Notes under the pieces: model-generated
The model's input: the letters and a program-made list of their open reading frames with translations, nothing else
Database searches by the model: none
Told to the model about the DNA's origin: nothing
Program-made: the position numbers and the translations under genes
Virus record (IMG/VR): IMGVR_UViG_3300020424_000002
Location: 64,001 to 128,000 of that record
DNA: 64,000 nt
Direction: 5' to 3' (one strand)
Origin: a virus
Shown here: in pieces, positions 11,712 to 61,403 of the stretch
How the letters are laid out: each line of letters begins with the position of its first letter
Position numbering within the stretch: position 1 is the first letter of the stretch

Positions 11712-12062
11712 TTATAACTCCTTTATTATATAGTTCAGTCCAGCTGCACTTCTATATTCTACAACCTCATCATCTTCGGTTGTAAACTTTAAATGTTTTT
11801 CTTTCTGTACTGAAATCTTTTTCACTATATAACTTTTATCATCTGCATCACCCCATTCTTTGTTGAATGATACTGTCACTTCATATCTTGTTCTGAATAA
11901 GTCTATAAACCACCAAAATGCAAACTTAATCCATTCCCAAATTTTAATTATCCACTTTCGCACTTGCTCTCCACTGATAACATGACCAATATCTTGCTTT
12001 CCATTTAGGGCCAGGGTCTGAACAATTATGTCTTGCTCTAAATGACTTTCTTCGTTCTGCAT
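11712..12062 (-). CDS. Hypothetical protein (true start probably near 11960)
   Basis: Trp-rich amphipathic N-terminal part, beta-rich C-terminus. Confidence 0.55.
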   Translation of the reverse strand: MQNEESHLEQDIIVQTLALNGKQDIGHVISGEQVRKWIIKIWEWIKFAFWWFIDLFRTRYEVTVSFNKEWGDADDKSYIVKKISVQKEKHLKFTTEDDEVVEYRSAAGLNYIIKEL

Positions 12063-13038
12063 TATCTCTGTTTATACCCATGTTAGGGTCTCCAAAACGA
12101 ACCACTACGACTTTTCCTTTCTCATTCTTTACATAGACCTTAAACTTCTTGTTAGGGTTCTCAGAAGTCCTTATAGGGTCGTTTAGTGTAACTTTCTTAC
12201 CTTGATACTCTGCTTCTGTAATTACATGGTCATAATATCCTAAACATTCTGCACAACATTCTTCTTGAGCTCTTTTGATTTGGTCTGCTGTAGGAGCTCC
12301 TTTTTCACCCTTTTTCCTCATCTTCTCACCAGAACCAGCTTTAATTCTTGCCTTTTTCTTTCTGATATTGTCCCAGAGACCTTCGTCTAATTCATCATCA
12401 CCTAATTTTAAAAACATTCTATTTTTAATTTGTTTTTTATCGGATGCAGTCATTCCTGCTTGTTTTGCAAGAGAGTTGATAAATGCAAGACCATCTTTTT
12501 CATTTGCTTTGTATCTCCTACCCATTTCTTTCTTAAGACCATTTGCAATTATGTCAAGAACATGAGATACATTTGTCACTATCCTACCATCTGTCATAAG
12601 TCTTGCCTCATTTACAGACTGTAGTGAACCTTTTAAAACAACTTTTTTCTTTTCTTTTTCTTTGTTTTTTACAAGAGGTGGATGTTCGTCTTCGTCACCA
12701 GCAACAATCATACCTATTTGATTTATTAAAGATGTAACTACTGGTGTGGGTAATTGTGATAATTGTTGCATCACATCTTTAGATAGACCTTTTACATTTT
12801 TTAGTTTCTTTTTCCAAGAAGAGATTGCAGTCATATCTTTTTTTCTTGATTCATTCATTGACTGACCAGGCGTATCATCCATATACCTTTTCAAAAGTTC
12901 TGGTGTTCCTACTTCTCTATAACCAGAGTCTTCTTTCTTTTTCTTTTTACGAACAATAGGTTTATCAGTAGAAACTGCAGCTCCAGTTGAGTTTACTGGT
13001 GCGTCTTCGAACATTTCTTTAAACCTTTTTATTTTCAT
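11944..13038 (-). CDS. Modular basic protein, putative capsid-internal polyprotein (C-terminal DUF6321-like)
   Basis: MKIKRFKEMFE leader; modules separated by xNE/LDE/ITE; KVYV...RFGD...RKSFRARH.C...YWSC. Confidence 0.65.
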   Translation of the reverse strand: MKIKRFKEMFEDAPVNSTGAAVSTDKPIVRKKKKKEDSGYREVGTPELLKRYMDDTPGQSMNESRKKDMTAISSWKKKLKNVKGLSKDVMQQLSQLPTPVVTSLINQIGMIVAGDEDEHPPLVKNKEKEKKKVVLKGSLQSVNEARLMTDGRIVTNVSHVLDIIANGLKKEMGRRYKANEKDGLAFINSLAKQAGMTASDKKQIKNRMFLKLGDDELDEGLWDNIRKKKARIKAGSGEKMRKKGEKGAPTADQIKRAQEECCAECLGYYDHVITEAEYQGKKVTLNDPIRTSENPNKKFKVYVKNEKGKVVVVRFGDPNMGINRDNAERRKSFRARHNCSDPGPKWKARYWSCYQWRASAKVDN

Positions 13039-14126
13039 GCTACCTCTTCTAATGGTTTACTTAATTCTTCCCATGATGTTTCGTAGTCTGATTCTGCATC
13101 AATCCATTGTGAAACACCTAACTGTTCATATTTAGGTAAAAGTCTATCTGGAAGTAGTCCAATCTTCTTAAGATTAGGCATGACTCTGTTAAATAATAGA
13201 TATTGAAATTGTGAACTTAATGTATTTTCTTTAGACCATTCGTCTGTATATTCTAAATCAAATCCCCATTTTTCCCAAACTTCATATTGTTTAAATCTAT
13301 TTCTCATAACAGTACATGCTTCCAAACAAAAATCTTCTCTTTCTATTCTTTCTTTTTCTGTTAGTGTTGTAACAAAACTTGTTAAATAATTTACACCAAA
13401 TGTTACATGTCTTGCTTCATCACGAATTACAAGTCCTAACAATCTTTTAAATACTGGGTCTTGAGTAGTATCTCTTATAGTATTAAAGATTGCAAGTGCA
13501 AGTCCTTCTATGATAATTTGCATTCCTATGAATTTAAAATCCCACCTTGGGTCTGTGAGTATCTTATCTAGTAATGCTTTTAAATTTTTTCCAATAGGCA
13601 TAATTCTACCTATTCTAGTTTGTAAATATTTGTTAAATGCTTCTACATGTCTTGCCTCATCAAAGGTCTGAGAAGCTGCATATAGTTTTGCATTGAATGT
13701 TGGAGCACAACTTGTAAGTTGAGATGCAACTAGTAATGCACCTTGTTCACCATGCATAAGTTGACTTATAGTCCAATCTTGACTATCCTTAATAAACTGA
13801 CATCTATCTTCATAGGATAACTTTGCATAATCTTTATGGTTTTTCCATTGGTCATCCATAAACTTAAAACCTTCATCACTAAATTCTGGATAAGGAATAC
13901 TCCAATCTACATCCTTTTCTACATTCCATTCTAACTCTTTACCAAGTTCATATAATTTTTTTATACGATTATCTTGTACTTTGTAATCCCAGTTATAACA
14001 ACCAGTTAAAGGTGTGTTAAATATTTCTATCACATCTTCTGGATTTATTTCTTGTTCTACTGGATAGTTTGCACCTTCAAATAGTTTGTCTTCTAAAGGT
14101 GGATTGTCTACTTTAGATATTTTCAT
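13035..14126 (-). CDS. Ferritin-like diiron oxygenase (AurF/desaturase-like)
   Basis: HGEQGA, DEARH, IEGLA, DEARH paired ExxH motifs. Confidence 0.8.
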   Translation of the reverse strand: MKISKVDNPPLEDKLFEGANYPVEQEINPEDVIEIFNTPLTGCYNWDYKVQDNRIKKLYELGKELEWNVEKDVDWSIPYPEFSDEGFKFMDDQWKNHKDYAKLSYEDRCQFIKDSQDWTISQLMHGEQGALLVASQLTSCAPTFNAKLYAASQTFDEARHVEAFNKYLQTRIGRIMPIGKNLKALLDKILTDPRWDFKFIGMQIIIEGLALAIFNTIRDTTQDPVFKRLLGLVIRDEARHVTFGVNYLTSFVTTLTEKERIEREDFCLEACTVMRNRFKQYEVWEKWGFDLEYTDEWSKENTLSSQFQYLLFNRVMPNLKKIGLLPDRLLPKYEQLGVSQWIDAESDYETSWEELSKPLEEVA

Positions 14127-15121: not shown

Positions 15122-15568
15122 TTACTTAATGTTTGCAACTACTTTAAACATCTTGTTAGGAAGTCTTTCGTATTCAACATGCATTTTAAGTTCTGGGCCT
15201 TTTGATGAAATGAAGTCGTCATCTAAGTCGTTACCTTCTTCATCTTTACCCATTCTACCACCATATTGAGTGATAGGTAAGTCCATTGAACCAGAATCAG
15301 ATACATCTTCATCTATGATTGTGTCAAATTCTATTCCAACTTGTTCTACTTTTCTGTATAATTGTTCTAAAGCAGCTTGAACTGTAATGTGTTCTCTATC
15401 TGCAATGTCACCTATCCAAGTATTTAATCTAGACAAAACTTTTGAATCAGATGCAAATAGGTGTAAATCCTCTGTAGGTACTCGACCTGTAACATCTTTG
15501 TTTAGTCTGTATCCACCATTTGCACCTGTATCATATGCTTCACTAATGTATTTCTTGAATGATTTCAT
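15122..15568 (-). CDS. Putative capsid-internal protein
   Basis: MKSFKKYISEA leader resembling the T4 capsid-targeting sequence. Confidence 0.6.
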   Translation of the reverse strand: MKSFKKYISEAYDTGANGGYRLNKDVTGRVPTEDLHLFASDSKVLSRLNTWIGDIADREHITVQAALEQLYRKVEQVGIEFDTIIDEDVSDSGSMDLPITQYGGRMGKDEEGNDLDDDFISSKGPELKMHVEYERLPNKMFKVVANIK

Positions 15569-15580: not shown

Positions 15581-16150
15581 TTATGCAGCTACTGTAATTG
15601 TACCCGCTGCAGTTCCTATTGAAGCTGCACTTGTAATTGTTGCATTACCACCCTCTGCTCTATCAACGATAGTTCCACTGTTAAGTGCTAGTGGGTTTGC
15701 ACCGAAACTTAATATATCACCTGCGTTTGTAGCTGCATTGTTAGCTCCAATTGCAAGAGAGAATGTAAGTTTGTTGGTTGATGAACCACTTGCATATGCA
15801 AGTAAGTGTGGCCCTCTTCCAGAACCAGAACCTTGGTTTCCATTAGTTACTGATAATGTAGGTGTTCCACCAGAAGTATTAACTGTTACTTTTTCATTAA
15901 AAGTTACTGTTGCTGATAATGTACCACCATCTGATTTATCAAATGCTGTTGATACCCAATCAATACTTGTTATGTCTGCTTGACCGATAGAAGTTGCAAG
16001 TTCTCCAATTGCACAGAGAACCTCTTCTGGATGATTGTCAGACTTCTTAAATATCCAGCCTCTTGCATCTGCAAAGACCAATTTCTTTTGTGCAGCTGTC
16101 AACCACTTTGGTTTGGCTTCGTCTGCATCTGAATTACCCCATAAAGACAT
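15581..16150 (-). CDS. Virion structural protein, Ig-like beta domain
   Basis: MSLWG start; S/T/G-rich; VTFNEKV.V..GTP.L...Y.SGS.T..LTF; late promoter upstream. Confidence 0.65.
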   Translation of the reverse strand: MSLWGNSDADEAKPKWLTAAQKKLVFADARGWIFKKSDNHPEEVLCAIGELATSIGQADITSIDWVSTAFDKSDGGTLSATVTFNEKVTVNTSGGTPTLSVTNGNQGSGSGRGPHLLAYASGSSTNKLTFSLAIGANNAATNAGDILSFGANPLALNSGTIVDRAEGGNATITSAASIGTAAGTITVAA

Positions 16151-17465: not shown

Positions 17466-18458
17466 TTATGCCATACTTCTTTTTATTGCACCCAGAGCTT
17501 TCATAAAAGATTGTTTGTTCTTCCCTAATAATTTGATTAGTTGTACTCTCATTTGTGGTTTTACTCTATCTAGTGCCATGTTAATTATTTTTGCATTTTT
17601 TTGGGTTACCTTAATTGTTTTACCATCGTCTAGTTTTACATCACTACCAGTTCTTAAATCCTCTGCACCTTTAAGTTGTACTTGAAGATTTTGGTCTGGG
17701 TCATTTGCACGAGGGCCTAACTTTTTAACTCTATCCCTTTGTTGAATAAAGTCTTTAATATTTTGTGAGATATCTTTATCTGGTTCAAAATCTGTATACT
17801 TACCAGCACCGACTGCTTGTGCAAACTTTTTACTTGGTGTTGATGACCCTTTTGCAAAGTTTACTATTTTATTCATTGCATCTTTAAAGTCTTTTGCTTT
17901 ATTTGCAATGTCTCTTATTTTATTATTTGCAGCTGGACTGTTTGCACCAAAGTCATGAAATGCACGAGCTTCATATGCAAGAACTTCTCCATACATTTTT
18001 TGATAGTCTTTAGTATACTTAGACTTACGCATAGGTTCTTTTCTTGCTTTTTTATCGCCTGGTGCATCTTTATATGCAGATGGGTCTGAATCAGATTTTT
18101 CTTTTCCTCTTTGGAAATGTGCATCTCTTTTGGACTTAGTAGATTTTTTGAGACCTTTAAAATACTTTGCTGGTTGAGTTCCTTTTTTATCTTTGATATC
18201 TTTGTCTTGAGGTTCTCTTTCCTCATCTCTGAGACGAGGTTCAGTCCTGTTATACTTTTGTGTAACTATTGAAAGATTTGACTTATCGTTATTCATAGGA
18301 TTACCATCTTTATGATGCACATCTTTACCAACAATACCTTTGGTATCTTTTAGTTGTCTTCGTGCATGATTTCTACCAGCTCTTCTTTTTTTCTGTTCTG
18401 GTTTAGAATGGTAGTTTTCGTATTCTTTTTTGTAGTTCCTTTCTTTGAAAGTCTCCAT
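17466..18458 (-). CDS. Modular protein with N-terminal HNH-like nuclease domain
   Basis: RNYKKEY...RR..RN.ARR...KDVHHKDGNP.NN..SNL.....NR; METFKE leader. Confidence 0.65.
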   Translation of the reverse strand: METFKERNYKKEYENYHSKPEQKKRRAGRNHARRQLKDTKGIVGKDVHHKDGNPMNNDKSNLSIVTQKYNRTEPRLRDEEREPQDKDIKDKKGTQPAKYFKGLKKSTKSKRDAHFQRGKEKSDSDPSAYKDAPGDKKARKEPMRKSKYTKDYQKMYGEVLAYEARAFHDFGANSPAANNKIRDIANKAKDFKDAMNKIVNFAKGSSTPSKKFAQAVGAGKYTDFEPDKDISQNIKDFIQQRDRVKKLGPRANDPDQNLQVQLKGAEDLRTGSDVKLDDGKTIKVTQKNAKIINMALDRVKPQMRVQLIKLLGKNKQSFMKALGAIKRSMA

Positions 18459-18467: not shown

Positions 18468-21065
18468 TTAGAATGAACTTATAACATCTTTGTGATTTGA
18501 ATACTTACTTGATGATTGTCTCATGAGATTATCATAGATTTGACCTCTGGTTCTCATTAATCCATCTGGCATGTGACCGAGTGCTTTGTGAGTCATCATA
18601 ATACCTTTTAATGCATCTAGTCCTTTTTTATCACCAAGAAGTTTTGCAAGATGCATTAATGAACCAGTGTGGTCATTTCTATCTGTCATTTTTTTAATCT
18701 TGTTGATATCTGCAGCTGACATTTCTTTTTTCTCTACAAGTTCTTCGATACCTTCTTTGATATCTTCTATCTTCTGATGCCACTCTACCATCTCATCTGT
18801 ACCTTCTTTATAGAAGATTGCTTTCTTAGTCACTGGGTCTAATCCCATGTACTTACCTTTGAGAGAAGGCATCTTAACACCAATGTCTCTTAACATTGCA
18901 ACCATCTTATGAAGTCTTTCCCAGTTTGCTGGTGGATGTTTTTGTTTCCAGATTTGACCCATTAATTTGTCAATACTTTTCTCTGGGTCTTTTTCATCAA
19001 ATGGTAGTTTAGTCATCTTTGCCATCATCTTACCAAATGTTTTAAGTTTAACAACATTTGCTGGTGATAGGTTTTCAATCACTACATGATGACCTGTAAA
19101 TTCTTTTGATTCGTTTGCATGTCTAAGTGCAAGTTTAACTGCTGGATTCTTAGATAATCCTCTTTTAAGTTTTTCTATTTCTTTGATTGCATAGTTAGTT
19201 GCACCACTTAAATCAAGTGCAAGTTCAATTGCTTTCTTAACTGTTTTATCTCTTGCAGCTGCTTTTTGTTTTGGATTGTCTCTGTAATATTTGTTTATTT
19301 CTTGACCTGTAAGTTTAGATTTACCCATCTTAGATAGTGGGTCTAACTTACCATCTTTGACTCTTTCATCTATTTTCTTACCATCTTTATCATACTTACC
19401 AGACTTTTTCTTTGCAATTGCAATTGCAGCTTGTTGTGCAAAGTTTTTACCTTTACCTTCTGATACTTCTTCTCGTATTTTTTCCATACCTTTTGGATTT
19501 TTAGTCACTATATCTCTCTGAGATAATATTTTTATTAAATCTTTGACCTCATCTGGTGCAATCATAAAACTTTCATTTCTAAATCTAATAGAATACATTG
19601 TATTCGGTGCTGGAAAGACAAGATTTATTGAGAATTTACCAGATTTTTTTAATCTAGGCATCGGTAGTGATGTTTTCATTGCTTCCTCAAGTTCTTCACT
19701 TACTGCTTTTTCTAAATCATCTGCTTGTTTTGCATGTTTCTTACTTGCTTTCTTCAACATAGTGACAATCTTTTTCACTACTGGTTTGTCGTCATTATCG
19801 AGTTCTTCTGGTAAAGGTTTTACACCTTGTTGTTTGAACATCTTCATCAAGGCATTGTTAGTTGCAAGTTTGATTTTGTTATCTTTACCCATTGCAACCA
19901 TAGTATTTTTAAATCCTTGAGGATTTTGTTTTTGCATTGCCATTGCAACTTTAACACCAGTCATGTTAAGAAGTTTTGCAACACCATACTGGAACATTTT
20001 ATCACCACCAGTTTTAAATAGTTTGTCAATCATTTCACCAGCAGATGCTTCTACTAGTTCAAAATCTTCTTTTTGCATTGCGAGTTTAGTGTTAAGAGTT
20101 CCAATCATCTTAAGGATTGTATCTCTTGCATCTAAAACTTTTTTGTAATCTTTGTTATGAACTGTATTCTTAAGTTCTTTATCACCCATGTTTGCAATCT
20201 TCTGATAAGCTTTTAAGACACTCTGCATGTCTTTAGAAACCTTTTTCATTGCCTCGACTTCTTGTCTCTTGACTTCATCTAAAGATTCTTTTCTATACTG
20301 TCTCATTAATGAATCTATTTGTTTTTGGATTCTATGATATTCATCACTGTCATACTTGACATCCATCTTTTTATTTCTAAGATTACTGATTCTATCTTTA
20401 ACTGAATCAGGCATAGTTGTTAGTGCTTCTAACATATTGTCATCTGGATGTATGACATGTGCAAGGTCTTTATCGTGATTTAGATTACCTTTTTTCTTCT
20501 TGACTATAAATGCATTTACTCTTGCCATTCCCCACTGCTGTGGAGTAGTTCCTGGCCTGTGTCCTGTTTTCCATGCAGCCATTCCACGATTGTAAACTTT
20601 TCTTAATGTTCCTACTGAGATACCAGATTTTTTAGCTTTAGCTGCAAGACCTTTAGATTCATCTAAATCATTATCTTCCATCATCTTCATAAGAGGTTTA
20701 TCTTTTTGGATGTCTTTCATTAAGTTGTCAATATCTTTGTCATTACCCTTGAAGTTTACATTATTATCATCTACAAATTTACCTTTGGATTGTGTACCAA
20801 ATGTTATTTTAACTTTTGGATGTTTTTTTGCATACTTACTGATTAATGCCTGTTGAATTTTTTTCTTGTTTTTCATTGGTACAGACATCATACCATCTTC
20901 TTCAAGATAATCTAACCAATCATTGATTTCTTCGTCACGAACATCTTCGATGAGAGAGTCAATTAACTCCTCATTTAAGATATCTTCATTTGGTGTTGCA
21001 TACATTTCTCTGTATGCATCTGCAACAGATGACAGAGTTTTTCTGTTTCTCATGTAGTTTGACAT
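18468..21065 (-). CDS. Large modular Lys-rich protein, putative internal-head polyprotein
   Basis: ~10 short basic modules separated by (L/I/V)xE sites; includes VYNRGMAAW...QWGMARVN module. Confidence 0.65.
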   Translation of the reverse strand: MSNYMRNRKTLSSVADAYREMYATPNEDILNEELIDSLIEDVRDEEINDWLDYLEEDGMMSVPMKNKKKIQQALISKYAKKHPKVKITFGTQSKGKFVDDNNVNFKGNDKDIDNLMKDIQKDKPLMKMMEDNDLDESKGLAAKAKKSGISVGTLRKVYNRGMAAWKTGHRPGTTPQQWGMARVNAFIVKKKKGNLNHDKDLAHVIHPDDNMLEALTTMPDSVKDRISNLRNKKMDVKYDSDEYHRIQKQIDSLMRQYRKESLDEVKRQEVEAMKKVSKDMQSVLKAYQKIANMGDKELKNTVHNKDYKKVLDARDTILKMIGTLNTKLAMQKEDFELVEASAGEMIDKLFKTGGDKMFQYGVAKLLNMTGVKVAMAMQKQNPQGFKNTMVAMGKDNKIKLATNNALMKMFKQQGVKPLPEELDNDDKPVVKKIVTMLKKASKKHAKQADDLEKAVSEELEEAMKTSLPMPRLKKSGKFSINLVFPAPNTMYSIRFRNESFMIAPDEVKDLIKILSQRDIVTKNPKGMEKIREEVSEGKGKNFAQQAAIAIAKKKSGKYDKDGKKIDERVKDGKLDPLSKMGKSKLTGQEINKYYRDNPKQKAAARDKTVKKAIELALDLSGATNYAIKEIEKLKRGLSKNPAVKLALRHANESKEFTGHHVVIENLSPANVVKLKTFGKMMAKMTKLPFDEKDPEKSIDKLMGQIWKQKHPPANWERLHKMVAMLRDIGVKMPSLKGKYMGLDPVTKKAIFYKEGTDEMVEWHQKIEDIKEGIEELVEKKEMSAADINKIKKMTDRNDHTGSLMHLAKLLGDKKGLDALKGIMMTHKALGHMPDGLMRTRGQIYDNLMRQSSSKYSNHKDVISSF

Positions 21066-21758
21066 TTACTTTCCAGCTTTTCTATTATTGTATATTAAAG
21101 ATTTTTCCTTAACATATCCTAACCTTCTTAAGGTTTCTTTAAATGATTTACTTCTTGCATCATATTTAATCTCAGATGCATCTTCGTTTTTACCGATTGC
21201 TTTTGAGATTGCTTTTCTTTTCTTATGCAAGAATTTATCAGATGAATCAACATCACCATCATTGTCGATGTCTTTGTCTTTTCTATCTTTAAACTTTTTC
21301 TTAACTGCTTTTTTGTCTACTTTATCAAGTCCTTCACCATCATCTGATTTATCATTAGATGCATCTTCTGTATTACAATGACTTGCCTTTAGGTCTTTTT
21401 TGAGTTTTTTCTTTCCATCCTCAGAACCCATATCAGCCATTTCACCGACTGTACAAGGATACTCTTTACCAGCAAACATAAAGGTTTTATCACCATTTTT
21501 CTTTGCTTGTCTTGCAGCTGCAATGAATGACCTTTTGTCATCATTTACTGCTTTTCTAAGTTCTTGTAGTTCTTTATTGAACGATTCTGCAACTTCTGGT
21601 TTGTCCTGTAAAGGATATCCCATAAGTTCTGCTTGTTGTGCAAAACGAGATTTTGCTGGTTGTCCAGAATTAAGGACTTCTGAGACCGCATCAGCAACAG
21701 ATTTAGTTACTTTATCAGTCCCACTGTTGAATTTTAATCTATCTTTTATATCTGACAT
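21066..21758 (-). CDS. Charged putative prohead core/internal protein
   Basis: DKDIDNDGDVDSSDKFLH EF-hand-like motif; late promoter upstream. Confidence 0.55.
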   Translation of the reverse strand: MSDIKDRLKFNSGTDKVTKSVADAVSEVLNSGQPAKSRFAQQAELMGYPLQDKPEVAESFNKELQELRKAVNDDKRSFIAAARQAKKNGDKTFMFAGKEYPCTVGEMADMGSEDGKKKLKKDLKASHCNTEDASNDKSDDGEGLDKVDKKAVKKKFKDRKDKDIDNDGDVDSSDKFLHKKRKAISKAIGKNEDASEIKYDARSKSFKETLRRLGYVKEKSLIYNNRKAGK

Positions 21759-21786
21759 TGTGGTCTCCTATTAATGTTTCCTCTAG

Positions 21787-21794
21787 TATTTATA
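21787..21794 (-). promoter_or_regulatory. T4-type late promoter
   Basis: TATAAATA. Confidence 0.75.
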
Positions 21795-21798: not shown

Positions 21799-23220
21799 TC
21801 ACTTCTTCGACTGTGATTGTCTAAACTTTTTAAGTCGTTCTACTTCACCTTTTTTAACTTTAGGGAAGAGTTTTTTACTTAATTTTGCAATTGCACTCTT
21901 CTTTTTATCTAATTTTTTACCGATTGCAATTCTAGCACCCATTGAAAGTTCACTTGCAGCCTTACCACCAGACATTTTTTTAAATAAAATTGCTCTTGCA
22001 GTCTTCATTGCTTTTGTTTTCAATTGGTCATTAGTCTTCATTCTTTTCTTTTTACGAGCTTTAGTTCTTGCAATCTTCTGTGCAAGTCGTCTCATTCTCA
22101 TACCAATTGCCCTTCTTTGTTGCATATTAAGTACTTCTAACTGTAATTGTCTTGTTAATTCACTAGTAAATTTACCTTCTGCAACCTTATGTTGTTTCTT
22201 TGCCATGTTCATTGCTGTCCCATGCATTACTTCTTTTGCTTTATCACCATACTCTTTTTCAAAGTAATCTTTCTTTTTCTTTAAATCTTTGTAAATCTTT
22301 TCTTTCGTAGCCATAACTGCATCGGATACTTCGTTTGTATCAGTCGGATTTGTACTTCTATTTTTAAGTCTAGTTAATCTTCTTCTATCTGCATCCATTT
22401 CTCTGTCATGTTTAATTTTTAATTGTTCTTTTTCTCTAGATTGTTTGTCTTTTAGGTTATCTGTAGTTTCATCTTCATTGAATAATCTTTTTTCCATATC
22501 TACTGGATGTTCATAGGAAGCTGCAAGTGCAACATTTTTCATAGGTTTCATGGTCAATGCAGATTTCCATGCAGTTGCCATTTTGTTTGAAGGGAAAGAT
22601 TTTACGAATGCTCTAAGTCTAGGGAAAATTTTAGTGGTGTTTTTATCCAAATCATTCATATCACCATCATTATCTACAATAAAAAAGTTTTGTCTACCAA
22701 ATGTAGCTTGTAGTTTACCCATGTTTTTTCTGACTGTTGCATGATTGCTTTGTACTATATTGTCTGGGATACTTCTTTCTCGTTGTCTATTTCTATCTAA
22801 TGCAGTTTCTAATGAAGTATTTACGAATACCATTGCAGTTTCGTATCCTAAATCTTGAAGGAGTTTTCTTTGTTTTACGATATTTTTTACATCTCTTGCA
22901 GTTGAATCAATAACAAGTCCTAACCGACCTTTAATATACATTTCTTGTCGTTTACCAGTGATTGCTTTTGCATGAACACGAATTGCATCTCTTTGTTCTT
23001 CTTCACTCTCTGGCATTTTAAGTGAAAGACCTGCTTTCTTAAGACCCATTTCAAATGATTGGTCTGAGTTTACTGGTCGTAAACCCATAGAACCGAACCC
23101 TAATTTTTTAGCTGCAAGTGATTTACCACTGCCTGGGCCACCTGCCATAAAGACAGCCTTAAATACGCCTGGGTCGTTAATTCCTTCGTTAAGCGAGTCG
23201 TATGTATTTTCCAATATCAT
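21799..23220 (-). CDS. Zeta-toxin/AAA_33-like P-loop kinase fused to basic modules
   Basis: KAVFMAGGPGSGKS, VNSD, VIDST, ALDRN..RER. Confidence 0.75.
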   Translation of the reverse strand: MILENTYDSLNEGINDPGVFKAVFMAGGPGSGKSLAAKKLGFGSMGLRPVNSDQSFEMGLKKAGLSLKMPESEEEQRDAIRVHAKAITGKRQEMYIKGRLGLVIDSTARDVKNIVKQRKLLQDLGYETAMVFVNTSLETALDRNRQRERSIPDNIVQSNHATVRKNMGKLQATFGRQNFFIVDNDGDMNDLDKNTTKIFPRLRAFVKSFPSNKMATAWKSALTMKPMKNVALAASYEHPVDMEKRLFNEDETTDNLKDKQSREKEQLKIKHDREMDADRRRLTRLKNRSTNPTDTNEVSDAVMATKEKIYKDLKKKKDYFEKEYGDKAKEVMHGTAMNMAKKQHKVAEGKFTSELTRQLQLEVLNMQQRRAIGMRMRRLAQKIARTKARKKKRMKTNDQLKTKAMKTARAILFKKMSGGKAASELSMGARIAIGKKLDKKKSAIAKLSKKLFPKVKKGEVERLKKFRQSQSKK

Positions 23221-23845
23221 CTGTTATGTACTCTGGTATATGATGGAATTCTTCTCGAATTGCCATTCCTTTTCTTACTGCTTTATACAGTTGTTTTCCT
23301 TGTCTAAAAGTTCTTGGTAATGATTTAACAAATGTTTTTTCATCACCATCGAAAGCCATTGCTCTCATCTTAGATGCAGACATACCAGATATGTCATCTG
23401 CATCTGGGTCTCTTTCACCTGCTGATACCAATTCGATACTTTTAAAGTTATAGAAACCATGTCTACCTTTCACACCATTGTACTTTGTGAGTAGACTCTC
23501 AAATTCTCTTAGTCTATCTGAACCAGCAACCATCTTTACACTTCTGTATCCTTGGTTATACAAGTCAACCACCACATCAAATACTGTTCTAGAATTAGAT
23601 GTAGAAACTGTTACTTTTGCTGGTCTAAACAAGAGTTTCATGAACTTTGTTTTGGTTCTATAATCTAGTGGATTCTTCTTTGGGTCTTGACTATGACTTG
23701 TATAGATGAATCCATCATCCGAACCAGCAACCTGTTTCACTTTCATTGCAAGTTTGAGATGTCCAGCAGTTGGTGGATTAAACCTACCGAATGCAAACAC
23801 AGCAGTTTGTGAATTTATCTCAACAATGTCTTTGAAACTTTTCAT
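23189..23845 (-). CDS. Cytidylyl/nucleotidyltransferase (HIGH family)
   Basis: FGRFNPPTAGH, KNPL, AGSDR, MSASKMR. Confidence 0.85.
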   Translation of the reverse strand: MKSFKDIVEINSQTAVFAFGRFNPPTAGHLKLAMKVKQVAGSDDGFIYTSHSQDPKKNPLDYRTKTKFMKLLFRPAKVTVSTSNSRTVFDVVVDLYNQGYRSVKMVAGSDRLREFESLLTKYNGVKGRHGFYNFKSIELVSAGERDPDADDISGMSASKMRAMAFDGDEKTFVKSLPRTFRQGKQLYKAVRKGMAIREEFHHIPEYITDDIGKYIRLA

Positions 23846-25057: not shown

Positions 25058-26269
25058 TTATTTGTCCCAGTCTTTTTGTACTGTAAAGTTATTTAGTGAG
25101 AACTCCATTCGGTCTACTAACTTCACTGCACCACCAAGATTATTGTCAATTGCAACAAAACCCTCTGGTGCAACGACATCAAAACCATTATCTTTTTTTA
25201 CAAACAATTGTGTTAATTGTTTTGCTTTATTTACTTTAGTAAGTATCTTAATCTTTGCATAGTTTATCAATGCTTGAAACTCTACTAAAGTTTTAAGTAA
25301 TGTTAAATGTTTTCTAATTTGTGTAAGATGTATGTTTTTGTTTTTCTCTGCTGTCTTTTTTGCAGATGTAACTTTGAGTTTATCTATTTGTGCATCAAAC
25401 TTTTCCTCTACAAATTTAAAATAACCATCTGCATGATTCTTATAGTTTAATCGTAAAAAGTTTGTTCCTTCTCTTACTTTACTATTGTGATATGTTTTGT
25501 AACTCATGCCTGGCTTCATCTCTGATTGATGTTTTAAGAATGAATCTAGTGATGGTTTTCTTATCTTCTGAAAAACCTTACCTGTTCTGGACATCAATCT
25601 GGTTATTTCTGCACTGTCTTTTTGCGTAAAGGTTGCAGTTCCAGATACATCATTGTAGGATGCATCATCCATCCAGACCTTACTTGTTTTTTTAAGACCA
25701 GATATGTTTGCACCAAATGATGCAGTTAAATCTGATAATGAATCTCCTGTATAAGTTGTATGAAATACAATACCCACATTTGCTCTTCTCATAGTAGATG
25801 CAAGTTTAGATGTAGAAGGTACTGCATACATGATTGTATTTGGTTGAAAGGTTTCATACGATTCACCATTGATATCTTTCTTTTCTAGGTCACCTTTTGT
25901 AAACATCAAGTCACCTTGAAGTATATCTTTAATACCGATATCTTTCAGATTGTTATAACATGCTTTGAATTTTTCTGCAAGTTGTCCAGATAAATCTGCA
26001 TTTATCTCTGCAATTGATGTGTAGTATTTTGGTGTTTTGTTAAATAAACTTTTCTTTGCAACAAAGAATTTACCTGTCTCTGGGTCATTACCACAAAAGA
26101 TAGCAGGAGCTCCATCCCATTTTACAGTGACATTAACACTTCTCTTACTTCCAGACATCAACATGTCACGAAGTGACCTTATAAAGTTTATAGATGCACG
26201 ACCACCATCAATACCATTATTGAATATTTCGTCTTCTATATGTTCTAAATGTACATTAGGACTTGGCAT
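25058..26269 (-). CDS. DUF6267-like protein, ligase-type nucleotidyltransferase fold
   Basis: HLEHIED, TVKWDGAPA (KxDG), QGDLMF, PEGFV, KLVDR.EFS. Confidence 0.7.
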   Translation of the reverse strand: MPSPNVHLEHIEDEIFNNGIDGGRASINFIRSLRDMLMSGSKRSVNVTVKWDGAPAIFCGNDPETGKFFVAKKSLFNKTPKYYTSIAEINADLSGQLAEKFKACYNNLKDIGIKDILQGDLMFTKGDLEKKDINGESYETFQPNTIMYAVPSTSKLASTMRRANVGIVFHTTYTGDSLSDLTASFGANISGLKKTSKVWMDDASYNDVSGTATFTQKDSAEITRLMSRTGKVFQKIRKPSLDSFLKHQSEMKPGMSYKTYHNSKVREGTNFLRLNYKNHADGYFKFVEEKFDAQIDKLKVTSAKKTAEKNKNIHLTQIRKHLTLLKTLVEFQALINYAKIKILTKVNKAKQLTQLFVKKDNGFDVVAPEGFVAIDNNLGGAVKLVDRMEFSLNNFTVQKDWDK

Positions 26270-26588
26270 TTCTTTCCTTCGTTTTCTTTTTCATCTTGTT
26301 TATGTATGCACGATAGACAGCTGCCTGTGCATTCTTACCCATCTCTCTTGCTCTTTGTTCCATTGCAATTGCAGCTTGTATTTTATGTGCATGAGATTTA
26401 CCAGAATTTTTAATCTTAGTGACACTTGCTTTTGCATCATCAACTGTTGCAAATTTTAATCCATGAATAGTTCCTTTAGGATTTTCATCTGTATATAAAT
26501 CAGAATGTTTTTTAGAGTTTGCAGGCTGACCTTTCTTTCTAGGTATCCTAGGATTCTTTTGTTCTATAAATTGTTTGAAAGAAATCAT
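26256..26588 (-). CDS. Basic putative internal protein
   Basis: MISFKQFIE leader; DLYTDENPKGTI.GL.F...MEQRA. Confidence 0.6.
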   Translation of the reverse strand: MISFKQFIEQKNPRIPRKKGQPANSKKHSDLYTDENPKGTIHGLKFATVDDAKASVTKIKNSGKSHAHKIQAAIAMEQRAREMGKNAQAAVYRAYINKMKKKTKERNAKS

Positions 26589-27310
26589 TTGTTTCTTACA
26601 TTTCCTATTGCATCTGTATATGCAAGTGTTAAAGGTAGTAAGTCTTTAATAGGTAAATCTATTTCTAATGCAGTTACTTGTATAGCTGGGTCAACCAATA
26701 CAGCAGATAAGAATCTGTGGTGACCATCTATAATTCTGTCATCTTTAGATACTACATAAAAATTATTCTTAGATGCAGAAAAATCTTTAGTCCCTTTTGC
26801 ACCAAACTTAGATACATTCTTAATTGACTTGTCAAAATATATTTGACTTTGAATAGGTTTTAGTTTTCCTACTGCAATCTTTTTAATTCTAACATTTACT
26901 TTGTCATCGTCTTTATCACCATCATTCTTTGCAAGACCACCACTTACCCATTTTTTTCCTGTCTCTTTGTCTAGTCCTTGAGGAAATGGGTCATCTGGAA
27001 CTTCGTTCTTTGCAAAGGGTCTTGCAATATCAATTGCACCTGCTTTTAATCTTCTTTGTAATAGTTTGATATCTCTGTTATCGATTACAGGCATATCTTT
27101 TCTTTGTGCAAATCCCATCCTTGCAAGTTTTTTTGCAAGTTTATAGTTTCTATCGAAGTTAGGAATCTCTTTATCTATATCAAATCCTTTCTTATCAAAA
27201 AGTTTTTTTGCATATTCATATGCTTTCTTCTCATCTGTTTTGATAAGTTCCATCTTACCAGCTTCTGCACCGCCTTTACCTTCTGCTATGTATCTTCTAA
27301 AACTTTTCAT
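26585..27310 (-). CDS. ParB/Srx-like domain protein
   Basis: R.DMPVI, LKPIQSQI, IIDGHHR; MKSFRRYIAE leader. Confidence 0.75.
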   Translation of the reverse strand: MKSFRRYIAEGKGGAEAGKMELIKTDEKKAYEYAKKLFDKKGFDIDKEIPNFDRNYKLAKKLARMGFAQRKDMPVIDNRDIKLLQRRLKAGAIDIARPFAKNEVPDDPFPQGLDKETGKKWVSGGLAKNDGDKDDDKVNVRIKKIAVGKLKPIQSQIYFDKSIKNVSKFGAKGTKDFSASKNNFYVVSKDDRIIDGHHRFLSAVLVDPAIQVTALEIDLPIKDLLPLTLAYTDAIGNVRNK

Positions 27311-27318: not shown

Positions 27319-29427
27319 CTATACTAATGGGAATGATTTTGCAGATGATGTTATTTTAACAGTTTGAACTTGTAATCCAAAAAAGTTTAACAATGCATTG
27401 AACATTCCTTTTCCTAAATTTTTAATTTTTTTAAATACTGCTTTAACTCTTTTCATAATTGCATTTAAAATTTTCTTTGCTTGATTCTTTATTGCAGAAC
27501 CCACATCTTTAACCTTTTGTACTAATCTACTAAACATTTGAAACTCATCTAATTGTTCTACTGCACCTTCATGTAAAAGTTGCATACCCATTCTTTCTTT
27601 TTGTAATTCTTCTTTTACAATTTGTTTAAAGTTTACTTTACCACTTCTCATGGAGAGATAAGGTTTAGAACCACCACCACCTGTTTTAAATGATACATAG
27701 AACTTGTTTGTTTGTGCAAGAACTTTTGCATCCGATGGTTTGTTCATAGGAAGATGTTTAGTAATTGTTCCATTATCTGCATTAAACTCTACCAATTCAT
27801 TTGCAACTGCAAGTGGTTCTGCAAATTTTCCTATTCCAGTTGCAGCTTCAAAGCAGAAGAATTGTTTGAAATCTAAACTTTCAAATAAAGAATCCATTTC
27901 AGCAGTTAGTTCTTTTGCAGTAAATTGTAAGTTTTCCATTTGTTCTATACTTTTCTTTTGTGCTGGTGTTAAAGGTTTACCACTATCTCTAAGTTTTTCT
28001 AATGCACCTATAGTTCCTTTTTCATTCATTTCACCCATTTTCTTTTCTAAACTATCAATAACACTCTTAACTTGTCTAGGTGAATTTTCTCCCATCATTG
28101 ACATTGCAGACTCAAATGTTGATATTGTTTCTTCTTTTTTACCAGACATTAACTGTGAACCACCAGCTTTCTTTAGAGATATTTTTCTTTTTCTTTTATT
28201 ACCAAGTAAATCTGTTTTAGGTGTTTTGTTTTTACCTTTCCATTTTGGATTTAATTTTGCAGTTGAACTTCCAAACTGTTCTAGTTCAGTTATTCCTAGT
28301 TTCTTTTTGAATGTTTTTCCAAGTTTAATTGCATCCTCTCCATAGTTTGCCCAAAACTTTTCTGCTCTGTCCCACTCTGCACCTTCTTGTTTATCATTGA
28401 CTGCAACTGCAATTAGAGCTTCCCAATCTTCTCCTGCTGGTGTTGGGTTTCCATCTGGTAATCTAGTAAAGTAAGAACCATAAGAACTTGAAGTACCAGC
28501 AAGTGTTATTGATTTACCATCTGGTGCTTTTAGTTGTTTTCTTGCATCACCTGTTCCTATATCTACTGGCAAATCTTTATCATCTTCAACTTCAAACACA
28601 TCACCAGACTTATATCCTAATGAATTTAATTTACCCCATTTACCATTGTATAAAAATTGAAATCCTGTTTTATACTTTCCTTGCATTATAGATGCTTCAT
28701 TTAAATCTGAAATACCTTCAAAGTGTAGTTTAGTTTCTTTTATACCAGACTTTTCTTTGTAGTGATTATAGAATGCACCAGCAAGTTGATGACCAAACTC
28801 TGTATCCGAAGGATAGTGAACTCCAGCAATCTGTCTAGAATTACCTATATCGTCACCTATTCTTTTGATGTTACCTTTATGTTCAAATGGTACTCTGTCT
28901 GCAAGATACAAACTTACAAACCTACCTTCGGTTGCATGTCCAGAAGGATATGCTGGTGTCTCTGCTGTTTTTAGTGGATAAACATTGAAGTTTGCTTGAC
29001 GAAAGAATGTAAGAACTTTCGACAGTTTTTGTGGTCTTGGTCTGTTGTAATGTATCTTAAGTTGTAGAACAATAGGTGCAAGTTGGTCTTTTAATTTTAT
29101 AACATCTTCCAAATCTTTCATTGGTAAATCATGTTCTTTGTAATAATTCTTAAATGGTTTCATCAACTTTTGGTCAACTAAGTCCATAAATTCTCTTGCA
29201 TCATTACGATAAACTTCGTAAGATTGTAATATTTTAAGTTCTTGTTTTGTTGCTACAGAAGAATTTTTGTAAGGATGATACTCTACCCACTGTTGAACTG
29301 GGAAATCTTTAAACACTCCTCTGTCTGCATTTAACTGTTTTTTTCTCTTGGGAGACATAGGCATGTTATGACCTAGATTGTCTACTGAGGAGTTGTCTTC
29401 TTTTAGGTGTTCGTAAAATGTTTGCAT
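27319..29427 (-). CDS. PAP2 phosphatase/haloperoxidase fused to a PD-(D/E)xK-like nuclease domain
   Basis: K..YNRPRP, YPSGH, SR..AGVHYPSD; C-terminal TPKTD...ISLKK; start reassigned to MQTFYEHLKE after late promoter. Confidence 0.75.
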   Translation of the reverse strand: MQTFYEHLKEDNSSVDNLGHNMPMSPKRKKQLNADRGVFKDFPVQQWVEYHPYKNSSVATKQELKILQSYEVYRNDAREFMDLVDQKLMKPFKNYYKEHDLPMKDLEDVIKLKDQLAPIVLQLKIHYNRPRPQKLSKVLTFFRQANFNVYPLKTAETPAYPSGHATEGRFVSLYLADRVPFEHKGNIKRIGDDIGNSRQIAGVHYPSDTEFGHQLAGAFYNHYKEKSGIKETKLHFEGISDLNEASIMQGKYKTGFQFLYNGKWGKLNSLGYKSGDVFEVEDDKDLPVDIGTGDARKQLKAPDGKSITLAGTSSSYGSYFTRLPDGNPTPAGEDWEALIAVAVNDKQEGAEWDRAEKFWANYGEDAIKLGKTFKKKLGITELEQFGSSTAKLNPKWKGKNKTPKTDLLGNKRKRKISLKKAGGSQLMSGKKEETISTFESAMSMMGENSPRQVKSVIDSLEKKMGEMNEKGTIGALEKLRDSGKPLTPAQKKSIEQMENLQFTAKELTAEMDSLFESLDFKQFFCFEAATGIGKFAEPLAVANELVEFNADNGTITKHLPMNKPSDAKVLAQTNKFYVSFKTGGGGSKPYLSMRSGKVNFKQIVKEELQKERMGMQLLHEGAVEQLDEFQMFSRLVQKVKDVGSAIKNQAKKILNAIMKRVKAVFKKIKNLGKGMFNALLNFFGLQVQTVKITSSAKSFPLV

Positions 29428-29441
29428 AATACTATTTATGC

Positions 29442-29473
29442 AAATAAAAAAGGGAACAATGGCCATTGTTCCC
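29442..29473 (-). terminator. Intrinsic terminator
   Basis: GGGAACAAT-GGCC-ATTGTTCCC followed by TTTTTATTT; CATAAATA late promoter just downstream (29433-29440). Confidence 0.85.
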
Positions 29474-42425: not shown

Positions 42426-43142
42426 CTAGTTTCCTTGGGTAACATTTACATTACAACCACCAGATGTGTAGCAATAATTAGTTATACTATATGACTTACT
42501 ATTCCAACCATTTTGTATTACACTAATATCAGTTGGTTCTGTTCCTCTTAGAATGACACTCATATAATGGTCTCCACTATTTGTTTGTCGAAGGTCAACT
42601 TCATTGTAATCGTTGTAAATATCTAAATTGATATATTGACTTCCACCTTCTCTTTGGACTGTGTATATATCATTGTTATCACCTTCAAGATGCAACCAAT
42701 ATTCATGACCAGAAGAATTACTATTTGTTCTTTGTGTCATTAAAACTTGGTTATTATCACCTGTAATATTAATATGTGCAAAGGTATCACCATATTCTGC
42801 ATAGTCTCTATTAAAGTTTCCATTAGTTCCTACTTGATATCCTTGACCAAGTTTTAAAGTATTTCCATCTCCCCAAAGTCTTCGAAGTTCTATAGTGTTT
42901 GGTTGTGTTTTATTACCTCTATCTCTAGCTTGTTTTATAATAATAGTATTATCACTACCATCTATTCCTTCTGATGATGTCCATTGTTTTACAACATTAT
43001 TATATCCAATTTGAGTTATATCAAGTTCAAAGTTATCACCTTCTTGTTTGATTGTAATTTCATTATCGTCTGCAAATACTGGATTACAAAATCCTACAAA
43101 ACTAATTAGACTGATTAATAATAATTTGTGAATCATCTCCAT
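42426..43142 (-). CDS. Secreted curlin-like (CsgA/CsgB-like) repeat protein
   Basis: Signal peptide; N.I.I.Q.G..N repeats. Confidence 0.7.
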   Translation of the reverse strand: MEMIHKLLLISLISFVGFCNPVFADDNEITIKQEGDNFELDITQIGYNNVVKQWTSSEGIDGSDNTIIIKQARDRGNKTQPNTIELRRLWGDGNTLKLGQGYQVGTNGNFNRDYAEYGDTFAHINITGDNNQVLMTQRTNSNSSGHEYWLHLEGDNNDIYTVQREGGSQYINLDIYNDYNEVDLRQTNSGDHYMSVILRGTEPTDISVIQNGWNSKSYSITNYCYTSGGCNVNVTQGN

Positions 43143-44244
43143 CTCCTATGAGGATTACTCCCTCATACCCTTCTACTATTGTTTGTAGATATACATTTGA
43201 ACCACTATCAAATGCAATCTCAATAACACCATTTACATCTCTAAAGAAAATTAACTTTTCATCTTCGATAAAGACATTGTATTGTGAACCTTGGTTTAAC
43301 CCTAATGTTGCACCTTCTACTTTAAATTGTCCTATGTTAGTACTACCACCTTCTGTTGATGCACCTCTTATTTTCTTATCTAGTTCTTCTATAACATCAA
43401 GAACATCTACAAGTAAATCTACATTTAATGCATCAATATCTAATGCAGAATATTCTAGGTCTCCTTCTGTTTCTTTGAGTTCATCTTTTTCTAACTCATT
43501 AAACTCTAGAAAATCTACATCTAAAATTCCTTGGTCATCATTCATGTCATCTGCAGCTTGTTCTTCTACTGCAATTCTGACTTCCTGTGGTGGATTGACA
43601 ATAAACATATTATCAATCATTGAAGGTGTAATGTTCTGAATCGTTACTGCAACTGTTGGTGGTGACTCATAGGATGACACCATAGTTGCTTGATAAGGTT
43701 GATTCAGTATTCTTTCTCCACCTTCATTTGTTACCACTATTTCTCCAGATGCATTTCCATCATCATCTGGTAGCAAAACTACAAGTGACCTACCAAGCTC
43801 ATCAATTGTAGTTGTAAAATCTGTTCCATTTATAGCAATCTGTGCTGTAGGTGTGGATACCTGTATGTTTGCTTTCTTAATCTTCTTCCCAGTTCCACTT
43901 GCAAACCTTGCTGTCCCTTGTGCCATTCTAATTGCCATCTTGGACTTACTTGGGTCTGGGTCATAATAAACTTCATCAATGTACACTCTAGTATGTTCAG
44001 TCAATGCAAGTTCTTCTTCGTCTAAGAACTCTATCAACATACGACCATTTACTGTTGCAGCTTCATCATATAAATTGATATCTGAACCGACATCATTAGG
44101 TAAGGTTTCATTATTTCTAATAATACCACCTACACCTGTGGACTCTACAATATCTCCGATGGAGTCTGCATAAACAGACCCCATGAAGATAAATGCACTA
44201 ACTATCGTTAGATGAATCTTTTTGATTAATTTGAATTGTCGCAT
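43102..44244 (-). CDS. FecR-domain protein
   Basis: T..G...I.F.D...L.L.E.T...ID, G.ARF.SG, V.TPTA.I.I.GTDF. Confidence 0.85.
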   Translation of the reverse strand: MRQFKLIKKIHLTIVSAFIFMGSVYADSIGDIVESTGVGGIIRNNETLPNDVGSDINLYDEAATVNGRMLIEFLDEEELALTEHTRVYIDEVYYDPDPSKSKMAIRMAQGTARFASGTGKKIKKANIQVSTPTAQIAINGTDFTTTIDELGRSLVVLLPDDDGNASGEIVVTNEGGERILNQPYQATMVSSYESPPTVAVTIQNITPSMIDNMFIVNPPQEVRIAVEEQAADDMNDDQGILDVDFLEFNELEKDELKETEGDLEYSALDIDALNVDLLVDVLDVIEELDKKIRGASTEGGSTNIGQFKVEGATLGLNQGSQYNVFIEDEKLIFFRDVNGVIEIAFDSGSNVYLQTIVEGYEGVILIGDGDDSQIIINQSN

Positions 44245-44938: not shown

Positions 44939-44947
44939 TTCGTACTC

Positions 44948-59023: not shown

Positions 59024-59053
59024 ATTATACTAAAAAGTGTACCCATCATGCAA
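59024..59053 (-). promoter_or_regulatory. Class A promoter
   Basis: TTGCAT-gatGGGTACActttttag-TATAAT. Confidence 0.8.
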
Positions 59054-61367: not shown

Positions 61368-61373
61368 GTAAGT

Positions 61374-61403
61374 ATTATATGAAAAAATGTACCTATAAGT
61401 CAA
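61374..61403 (-). promoter_or_regulatory. Class A promoter
   Basis: TTGACT-tatAGGTACAttttttca-TATAAT. Confidence 0.85.

Follow-up and report, generated by a model that had tools for sequence, protein, structure and literature searches.

The internal proteins of phage T4 are marked for the head by a capsid targeting sequence of ten residues, in which, as described in PMC9026906, residues 4 and 7 serve targeting and residues 8 and 10 processing, with Asp at position 10 blocking the latter; the same source defines the leader from T4 IPIII as 10–19 amino acids (aa) long, with an aromatic residue at positions 4 and 7, a hydrophobic residue at 8 and Glu at 10. The cargo of T4-type heads is diverse and only the leader is conserved (PMC3012670). 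This targeting sequence and its diverse internal proteins, the multi-site processing of giant-phage head proteins (PMC5694885) and the embedded peptidases of polyvalent proteins (PMC5512222) were already known, and no description was found in the literature of protease-jointed cassette polyproteins in T4-like marine phages. The subject here is an open reading frame (ORF) at 18468..21065 on the minus strand of a window of 64,000 nucleotides (nt), namely bases 64001-128000 of the 146,136-bp virus record IMGVR_UViG_3300020424_000002. An initial annotation had read its 865-aa product as a protease-punctuated polyprotein of small basic modules, a view that gained support from a structure model, from module reordering in relatives, from the leaders of stand-alone DUF5824 proteins and from the gp21-type protease of the same phage. 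The protein is probably a packaged polyprotein that the prohead protease would cut into about ten small basic proteins.

The ORF was confirmed as real, and the 865-aa protein contains 15.8% lysine and has a net charge of +44. Ten acidic sites had been named as its punctuation, and 10/10 were found where they had been placed (a slash marks the candidate cut, and the numbers are those of the Glu residues):

LDE/S at E136, MLE/A at E213, LDE/V at E264, LVE/A at E339, LEE/A at E461
VSE/G at E536, IDE/R at E567, ANE/S at E652, VIE/N at E664, LVE/K at E778

The description of the intervening units as roughly 30-100 aa long held for seven of the ten, the actual lengths being 77, 51, 75, 122, 75, 31, 85, 12, 114 and 87 aa. 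The predicted pieces are 31-126 aa long, small, basic and Lys-rich, and the chain can be divided as follows:

Residues 1-56, 20898..21065, minus strand: conserved acidic N-terminal block with the conserved sites ILNE/, SLIE/ and YL[DE]E/; predicted score of the local distance difference test (pLDDT) <50
Residues 57-136, 20658..20897, minus strand: optional cassette, present in ~45% of 120 homologues; small alpha/beta mini-domain with the end DLDE/
Residues 137-213, 20427..20657, minus strand: DUF5824 module, a three-helix bundle directly after DLDE/; Pfam PF19141, E 3e-18
Residues 214-264, 20274..20426, minus strand: variable cassette with the end SLDE/
Residues 265-339, 20049..20273, minus strand: conserved helical block M3 with the end ELVE/; placed after M5a in some relatives
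Residues 340-420, 19806..20048, minus strand: helical-bundle block M4, in 83% of homologues, with the end LPE/
Residues 421-536, 19458..19805, minus strand: block 427-455 and a rare cassette (5-17% of homologues) with the end VSE/; the internal LEE/A at 461 is not conserved
Residues 537-567, 19365..19457, minus strand: 31-aa basic peptide GKGKNFAQQAAIAIAKKK...KIDE/, optional, in 52% of homologues
Residues 568-652, 19110..19364, minus strand: block M5a, after [ILV]xE/ in 120/120, with the end ANE/
Residues 653-778, 18732..19109, minus strand: nearly invariant block with the internal candidate sites VIE/ and LVE/
Residues 779-865, 18471..18731, minus strand: confident helical C-terminal domain, pLDDT ~90

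The first of these blocks possibly serves as a long propeptide of the sort that head proteins of giant phages have (PMC5694885), which is a guess by analogy. The PF19141 (DUF5824) match covers residues 143-200 and scores 66.6 bits against a cut-off of 25; the Pfam entry for this family carries no function, and none was found for it in the literature. Elsewhere M5a sits behind the short leaders MKFRDISE/ or MNIFQE/.

The modular anatomy can be seen directly in an alignment of homologues. The search returned 910 of them at E<=0.001, and the best 120, which are 550-1373 aa long, were aligned over 1924 columns; these are collinear with the query and differ by gain or loss of whole stretches. Conserved blocks occupy residues 1-57, 137-211 (DUF5824), 263-333, 340-420 (83% occupancy), 427-455 (71%) and 566-865 (100%, nearly invariant), and optional cassettes occupy residues 58-132 (~45%), 214-259 and 456-565 (5-52%). 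The meeting points of the two are E136, E213, E264, E339, E536 and E567. At the joints, the conservation of one motif is equally plain. Position P1 is Glu in 117/117 sequences at E56, 118/118 at E136 (P3 being Leu in 117 and Ile in 1), 118/118 at E264 (P3 Leu in 83, Met in 23, Ile in 12), 99/100 at E339, 54/55 at E536 and 120/120 at E567 (P3 Ile in 47, Leu in 43, Val in 30). At the main joints P3 is Leu, Ile, Val or Met, and P6-P4 and P2 vary, whichever cassette precedes; at E136, E264 and E567 the entropy is 1.6-2.4 bits for P6-P4, 1.0-1.7 bits for P2 and zero for P1. All distinct P6-P1 hexamers fit hydrophobic-x-Glu at four joints, that is 17/17 at E136 and 12/12, 12/12 and 11/11 at the others. 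The E213 column (Glu 29, Asp 29 and Asn 1 of 59) is only seemingly split, because MLE/A and MLDE/A align one column apart. In a test that was blind to the motif, it lay within +-3 residues in 136 of 282 distinct gap-junction contexts, as against 16% of random positions. The idea that the joints are recombination scars was rejected at the protein level by the diversity of the joint hexamers, 17 of them distinct at E136, which would leave only the Glu codon constant.

A protein of the multi-domain “polyvalent” type that is never cleaved, in which the joints reflect a linker or helix-capping habit, would also be modular, and there are grounds on which to entertain it: phage proteins carrying 2 to 15 domains are amply on record, some of them packaged without processing (PMC5512222), the best 120 near-length homologues all keep the C-terminal 300 aa together, and cleavage itself is here a deduction from sequence. 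A passive linker, however, should accept Asp and any residue at P3, whereas Asp stands at P1 in a single case over all joints tested (1/55, at E536, and none at E56, E136, E264, E339 or E567) and P3 keeps to its four hydrophobic residues at the main joints. We regard this explanation as unlikely, and two further sets of observations, on gene starts and on the surroundings of DUF5824, speak against it as well.

The first concerns the order and the borders of the modules, at least eight blocks of the 865-aa protein occurring independently in relatives, as befits a polyvalent multi-domain protein. In one relative (P0152) the order is MKFRDISE/ M5a ...ANE/ ... ELDE/ M3, the reverse of that in the query, and two others (P0185 and P0218), with MN[LI]F[HQ]E/ M5a ... 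M3, are reversed likewise; in a further one (P0163) the proteins of the 230-aa type, which is encoded next to the 865-aa protein, and of the 865-aa type are fused in one ORF. Homologues of the HNH family carry a DUF5824 cassette between NFTE/GALEDK and LMNE/ARAFHDF, and the window protein of that family reads LAYE/ARAFHDF at the same point. The kinase module starts with SLNE/G after a 12-aa leader in the window, with ILKE/G after an 8-aa leader in HTVC008M gp129, and internally with QLDE/G in a 991-aa chain (P0285) composed of a cytidylyltransferase, basic modules, DUF5824 and the kinase; in HTVC008M gp130 a cytidylyltransferase is linked to DUF5824 via EIDE/. Gene starts and internal joints are thus interchangeable as far as these sequences tell, and such swapping is not what an uncleaved chain would lead one to expect. 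The shuffled module order that had been predicted is borne out by relatives that gain, lose and reorder modules at hydrophobic-x-Glu joints, and an invariant order, which the initial annotation had named as the contrary outcome, was not seen among the homologues.

The second concerns the DUF5824 module, which is also found widely as a gene of its own, an ORF of 75-91 aa, behind a T4-like leader. A 76-aa ORF (P0235), present on 88 contigs and labelled a complete gene by one source, opens with MISFKQYIEE, continues with AKGLADKAKKSGIS... and ends where DUF5824 does, and the same module in the 865-aa protein begins SKGLAAKAKKSGIS after DLDE/. When viral contigs were scanned for the stand-alone form, 599 stretches matched and 598 were confirmed; the best 80 loci comprised 74 ORFs of 75-100 aa (leader plus module) and 6 embedded copies, a 74:6 ratio biased to the stand-alone form because that form was the query. 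M1, F4, Y7 and E10 are each at least 90% conserved in 30 aligned stand-alone copies, and with the residues mapped in T4 this means that the marine leaders keep the mapped T4 positions. In the T4 genes fetched for comparison, ipII and ipIII start MKTYQEFIAE/A, and ipI starts MKTFKEF... and has ITE followed by A. Leaders of the kind defined for capsid targeting were found on the stand-alone DUF5824 relatives and on the window ORFs 26585..27310 and 15122..15568, and not on the 865-aa protein; for the strict pattern the expectation over a crude genome set of 178 ORFs, which missed the 148-aa ORF 15122..15568, is 0.02 ORFs. A two-part leader with two copies of the motif, MINFKKYLEE/KRYSMYDEVDVKE/G, was seen at loci L012, L019 and L029 and at about 30 more of L005-L084, and the 19-aa leader of T4 ipI resembles this two-part leader of many stand-alone DUF5824 ORFs.

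In a set that holds a single representative for each 50%-identity cluster, the profile of the stand-alone form matched 2626 proteins at E<=0.001, 1387 of them at E<=1e-10. From the 150 best-listed representatives 143 were analysed, the remaining 7 being already covered by earlier searches. Where DUF5824 is embedded, [LIVMF]xE is present in the 16 residues ahead of the module in 105/107 representatives, against 22% of random 16-residue windows, and the Glu falls 2-4 residues before the end of that segment in 88/105; N-terminal copies have a motif-containing leader in 35/35. The identical motif thus ends stand-alone leaders and precedes embedded copies in unrelated contexts, which is again difficult to attribute to a linker in an uncleaved protein. 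A Pfam scan of the 78 proteins of >=300 aa among the 143 gave as partners Zeta_toxin/AAA_33 kinase (3), cytidylyltransferase-like (3), DUF6321 (4), DUF3008 (4) and DUF5661 (4), with DUF7230, LysM and IF2_N once each. The possibility that DUF5824 is commonly fused to head proteases was dropped, a peptidase domain being found by Pfam in 0/78.

An AlphaFold2 model of the 865-aa protein, built on a 69-sequence alignment, has no global fold (mean pLDDT 53, predicted template modelling score (pTM) 0.23). Confident islands at 61-130, 139-197, 220-259, 342-416, 665-730 and 778-865 are set among low-confidence stretches at 131-138, 198-217, 260-341, 417-486, 514-664 and 731-777, and nine of the ten named sites lie inside the latter, E778 falling one residue past the last of them. 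Structure prediction had been suggested as a check, and the outcome, separate islands with the sites in the stretches between, agrees with what was foreseen; the model fits beads on a string and is no proof of disorder. The stand-alone DUF5824 was modelled as a three-helix bundle with a short additional helix (pLDDT 82.5, pTM 0.72). Its likeness to sigma-factor region 2 was considered and rejected, the best match (Z 5.8, root-mean-square deviation 4.2 over 65 residues) being below a meaningful level for helical bundles, so that no fold is claimed. With the DUF5824 model, BFVD returned only DUF5824-bearing viral proteins at E<=0.001, and rows for XkdF (E 0.12) and a prohead protease (E 0.93) were not used. 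On the 865-aa protein Pfam found DUF5824 only and no peptidase domain; similarity to T4 internal proteins was detected neither by Pfam nor by PHROGs, a sequence-profile search of the PDB had no hit below E 0.04, the 865-aa model found no PDB match by Foldseek at E<=0.001 (weak KH-like rows cover one mini-domain of ~70 aa), and the protein Atlas gave unnamed viral clusters only, with scores <=0.79.

The long ORFs of the window are all on the minus strand and its guanine plus cytosine content is ~33%. Its replication genes are of T4 type by PHROG and Pfam matches (DNA polymerase, primase, DnaB-like helicase and ribonucleotide reductase), and the isolates that tblastn places nearest are Pelagibacter phage HTVC008M, the Methylophilales phage Melnitz group and phage C48C1. 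Beyond the window, and in T4 order, the record has genes for the major capsid protein, a scaffold candidate that is acidic, a prohead protease of gp21 type and the portal, two of which are:

Genome 138896..140251: acidic scaffold candidate, 451 aa, net charge -82, adjoining the protease gene
G000:C1:140477-140923: prohead protease, Peptidase_S77 (gp21-type), Pfam E 1.5e-37, 125 bits against a cut-off of 27

Next to the protease, in the position of T4 gp67/gp68 and again outside the window, a 122-aa Lys-rich ORF (G000:C1:141176..141544) has the targeting-like start MKKFKELVKE/I, and its product probably belongs to the prohead core. The capsid protein has ILSE/D ~25 residues ahead of the conserved LVRRSLPNLIAYDICGVQPM stretch, which we take, by analogy with T4 gp23, to be the maturation site.

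The presence of these head genes bears on a further explanation, by which the 865-aa protein is itself a prohead core or scaffold-like protein whose fragments serve only assembly or DNA condensation, being expelled or kept as counter-ions, and play no part in the host. T4 gp22, gp67 and gp68 are cut to short fragments by gp21 (PMC5694885), and the high lysine content of the protein would be in keeping with such a use. The scaffold candidate of this phage, however, is acidic and lies beside the protease, whereas the 865-aa protein is basic and ~55 kb away; its modules are moreover folded and conserved, as the well-modelled and widespread DUF5824 illustrates, and the fusion of modules to enzymes in relatives suggests more than filler. 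This explanation appears rather improbable.

A T4-type late-promoter motif is found in front of the pair formed by the 865-aa ORF and the ORF that abuts it:

21786..21794, minus strand: TATAAATAC, T4-type late-promoter motif, its 8-nt core ending 28 nt upstream of the ATG of the 230-aa ORF
21066..21758, minus strand: 230-aa Lys-rich ORF, abutting the 865-aa ORF with zero spacer

TATAAATAC also stands in front of the scaffold gene, the portal gene and several tail genes. By a back-of-envelope estimate TATAAATA is not enriched in the genome, its 23 coding-strand occurrences being close to the number that base composition would give, so only its placement just upstream of genes is informative. 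The 230-aa and 865-aa ORFs also share SVADA near their N-termini (at residues 20 and 13, respectively), the only two occurrences in the crude 178-ORF genome set, which may be a second kind of shared leader.

Cyanomyophages carry the same gene cluster: in Syn9, gp183 is a DUF6267 homologue, gp184 is a cytidylyltransferase with the start MKKFSAFLSE/A, and gp186 starts (V)MLTFKQLSE/K. The putative cytidylyltransferase (group T4-GC190) was detected in purified S-SM1 virions by Sullivan et al. 2010 (PMC3037559), the supplement of which enters “YES” for proteomic data on T4-GC190, with Syn9 gp184 as a member, and lists Syn9 gp188 as a virion structural protein. This gp188 is the apparent counterpart of the window ORF 15581..16150, judged by its cluster position and similar N-terminus rather than by alignment. 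Taken together, prohead protease sites are the most economical account of the joints, because an invariant Glu with a hydrophobic P3 stands at the cassette borders, because the same motif closes the T4-like leader of stand-alone modules, and because gene starts and joints interchange in a phage that has a gp21-type protease, a late-promoter motif at this locus and a neighbour whose family was detected in virions.

Several findings weigh against this account. The raw excess of motifs in the 865-aa protein is modest (z ~2.6), with 14 [LI]xE against 7.4+-2.5 and 20 [LIVM]xE against 13.7+-3.1 in 2000 shuffles; the count over a whole protein is a weak test, and the signal therefore lies in the positions of the sites, at block and cassette borders. 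Three other ORFs, in which the same layout had been seen, show no enrichment of [LI]xE (11944..13038, 2; 17466..18458, 0; 21799..23220, 2) though equally Lys-rich; single sites in them do fall at module boundaries, so that the claim stood in part. E461 is not conserved (6/22), E420 reads QKE in 19/118 sequences, and E652, E664 and E778 are inside the nearly invariant block, where variation gives no test, although E652 closes M5a, a module found separately in other proteins; the count of ~ten products thus leans partly on sites that variation cannot judge. Residues 568-664 are nearly invariant yet poorly modelled, which means that low pLDDT is no proof of disorder. The gene stands amid replication and nucleotide-metabolism genes at the noted distance from the head genes, although in T4, to judge from the genes fetched, the ip genes are likewise distant from the head genes. 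Lys-rich proteins yield very short tryptic peptides, and for this reason missing proteomic entries are weak evidence. They are missing in the supplement of PMC3037559 for the Lys-rich neighbours of the cytidylyltransferase in Syn9, gp185 (T4-GC715), gp186 (T4-GC933), gp182 and gp183.

A last difficulty is the N-terminus of the 865-aa protein, MSNYMRNRKT, which fits the T4 leader at position 4 only, and not at positions 7, 8 and 10, so that a canonical leader for entry into the prohead is absent. The same absence is what a cytoplasmic polyprotein would show, one that acts late, is not packaged and is cleaved away from the capsid, whether by some other protease or by the prohead enzyme in trans, and a preprint reports that phage proteases activate cyclic-oligonucleotide-based antiphage signalling system (CBASS) immunity by proteolysis (PMC12991175). 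The stand-alone leaders, on the other hand, match the T4 positions for targeting and not those for cutting alone, no other protease was found in the window by Pfam, and the family of a neighbour is reported in virions (PMC3037559), so that we hold a cytoplasmic fate to be very improbable.

Under the preferred reading, that of a packaged polyprotein, the 865-aa protein of this pelagimyophage-type T4-like phage would be made late, probably, and taken into the prohead core, where a gp21-type prohead protease would cut the chain after hydrophobic-x-Glu. This would release an acidic N-terminal propeptide, in several pieces, and some eight to ten basic Lys-rich proteins of 30-125 aa, one of them the DUF5824 bundle; they would remain beside the packaged DNA, most likely to exit with it at infection, like the T4 internal proteins, with DNA counter-ions, host takeover and anti-defence as the roles considered. 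We infer cleavage, packaging and ejection as steps of this scheme, and so too the location of the cutting in the prohead and any role of the products in the host; the word “effectors”, which the initial annotation had used for them, has no support behind it.

A wider view can be put forward tentatively, and we rate it slightly below an even chance: that marine T4-like phages (pelagimyophages, Melnitz and cyanomyophages) share a cargo locus in which the module, and not the ORF, is the unit of function and evolution. Its cassettes, bounded by prohead-protease sites, would be small basic domains by the dozen, DUF5824 among them, and enzymes, namely a ligase-like DUF6267 protein, an NMNAT-like cytidylyltransferase, a zeta/PNK-like kinase and an HNH nuclease; each could occur singly after a targeting leader or as a link in polyproteins reaching ~1400 aa, and the capsid would deliver a ready-made, fast-evolving protein kit with the DNA. 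Two pelagimyophage papers gave no passage on this locus in a search by terms. Neighbours of the 865-aa ORF in the window include:

11944..13038, minus strand: 364-aa Lys-rich ORF with ELDE/G (E219) and VITE/A (E275) at the starts of PHROG matches 219-257 and 274-356
15122..15568, minus strand: 148-aa ORF with the start MKSFKKYISE/A, a T4-like targeting leader
17466..18458, minus strand: 330-aa HNH_3 plus Lys-rich ORF in which a single AYE/A site is the cassette insertion point
21799..23220, minus strand: 473-aa P-loop kinase (AAA_33/Zeta_toxin fold) with a 12-aa leader ending SLNE/G and a Lys-rich tail
23189..23845, minus strand: 218-aa cytidylyltransferase-like protein with the start MKSFKDIVE/I, group T4-GC190
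26585..27310, minus strand: 241-aa basic ORF with the start MKSFRRYIAE/G, a near match to T4 MKTYQEFIAE/A

In the kinase, KVAE/G (E348) falls between two PHROG matches, and in HTVC008M gp131 the second module of the 11944..13038 type follows PLEE/A; the ORFs 11944..13038, 17466..18458 and 21799..23220 are assigned on such borders to the same system as the 865-aa protein, though motif counts alone do not show it.

Other ORFs of the window deserve mention. At 26256..26588 (minus strand) a 110-aa basic ORF starts MISFKQFIEQ, with Gln for the expected Glu at position 10, and its product may be targeted but uncut, or not cut at that place. The 715-aa Lys-rich ORF 27319..29466 (minus strand), with a PAP2 phosphatase match that is weak and below the cut-off (E 2.6e-4) and 22 [LIVMFA]xE sites, may be a further modular cargo protein. 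The 403-aa DUF6267 protein at 25058..26269 (minus strand; Pfam E 7e-98) contains KWDGAP, which in our estimation resembles the KxDG motif of ligase-type nucleotidyltransferases; homologues were found in 454 phage records, chiefly cyanomyophages, PHROG 455 shows cytidylyltransferase fusions, and some relatives start with the targeting-like leader MKFNDFITE/QKNTHMTHIEDK. Inside the Lys-rich cluster, the 363-aa protein at 13035..14126 (minus strand) has an AurF-type di-iron oxygenase match (Pfam E 6e-9). The 189-aa ORF at 15581..16150 (minus strand), PHROG 11617, has TATAAATAC 64 nt upstream. The 785-aa ORF 59046..61403, which bears the PHROG name “peptidase”, has no Pfam match and was dropped as an alternative protease. 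At 42426..45877 (minus strand) four successive ORFs have signal-peptide-like N-termini, and a curli CsgF/CsgG operon has been described in such a region of pelagimyophages (PMC7029224).

If the joints are cut, one “hypothetical” gene stands for ~ten virion proteins, and an entire conserved locus would be capsid cargo in myophages that rank with the most abundant of the ocean; DUF5824, with its 2626 cluster representatives at 50% identity, and many partner modules would gain a function class, and gene-level annotation would be seen to hide a cargo kit under “hypothetical protein” and DUF labels. The T4 targeting principle would extend from one leader and one protein to protease-jointed polyproteins, gene boundaries and cleavage sites would prove evolutionarily interchangeable, and natural leaders would be at hand for loading foreign proteins into T4-type capsids. 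For proteomics a search rule is gained, namely to look for peptides starting after hydrophobic-x-Glu.

In comparison with known systems, the locus has something in common with each of three. The ejection and inner-body proteins of the giant phages phiKZ, 201phi2-1 and SPN3US are likewise cut after Glu, by gp21-like proteases, some of them at several sites and with long propeptides, but the extra cuts fall mostly in propeptides, which are thrown away, so that each gene yields a single mature product, and P3 is a small residue there (AXE and SXE sites) (PMC5694885); no homology to these proteins was found, and the present phage, with a 146-kb record, is not a giant one. The polyvalent proteins of phages and conjugative elements described by Iyer, Burroughs, Anand, de Souza and Aravind (2017) also combine many unrelated domains; packaging and delivery along with the DNA are predicted for them and proteolytic release is proposed, but there the release is by an embedded zincin-like peptidase domain (PMC5512222), of which there is none here or in the 78 DUF5824 relatives; the joints here fit the prohead protease, a separate protein, and most of the modules are tiny. 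To the T4 proteins IPI, IPII, IPIII and Alt the likeness lies in small, basic, Lys-rich proteins (12-15% lysine in the T4 internal proteins) and in a leader closed by hydrophobic-x-Glu, MKTYQEFIAE/A in T4 as against MISFKQYIEE/A, MKTFNDFIVE/G and MKSFRRYIAE/G in the window and its relatives. The 865-aa protein differs in having an acidic 56-aa N-terminal block instead of a 10-aa leader, and, in contrast to T4, where each gene has one leader, one cut and one product, the chain here comprises up to ~ten modules, with cassettes exchanged between genes and, in relatives, enzymes included in the set.

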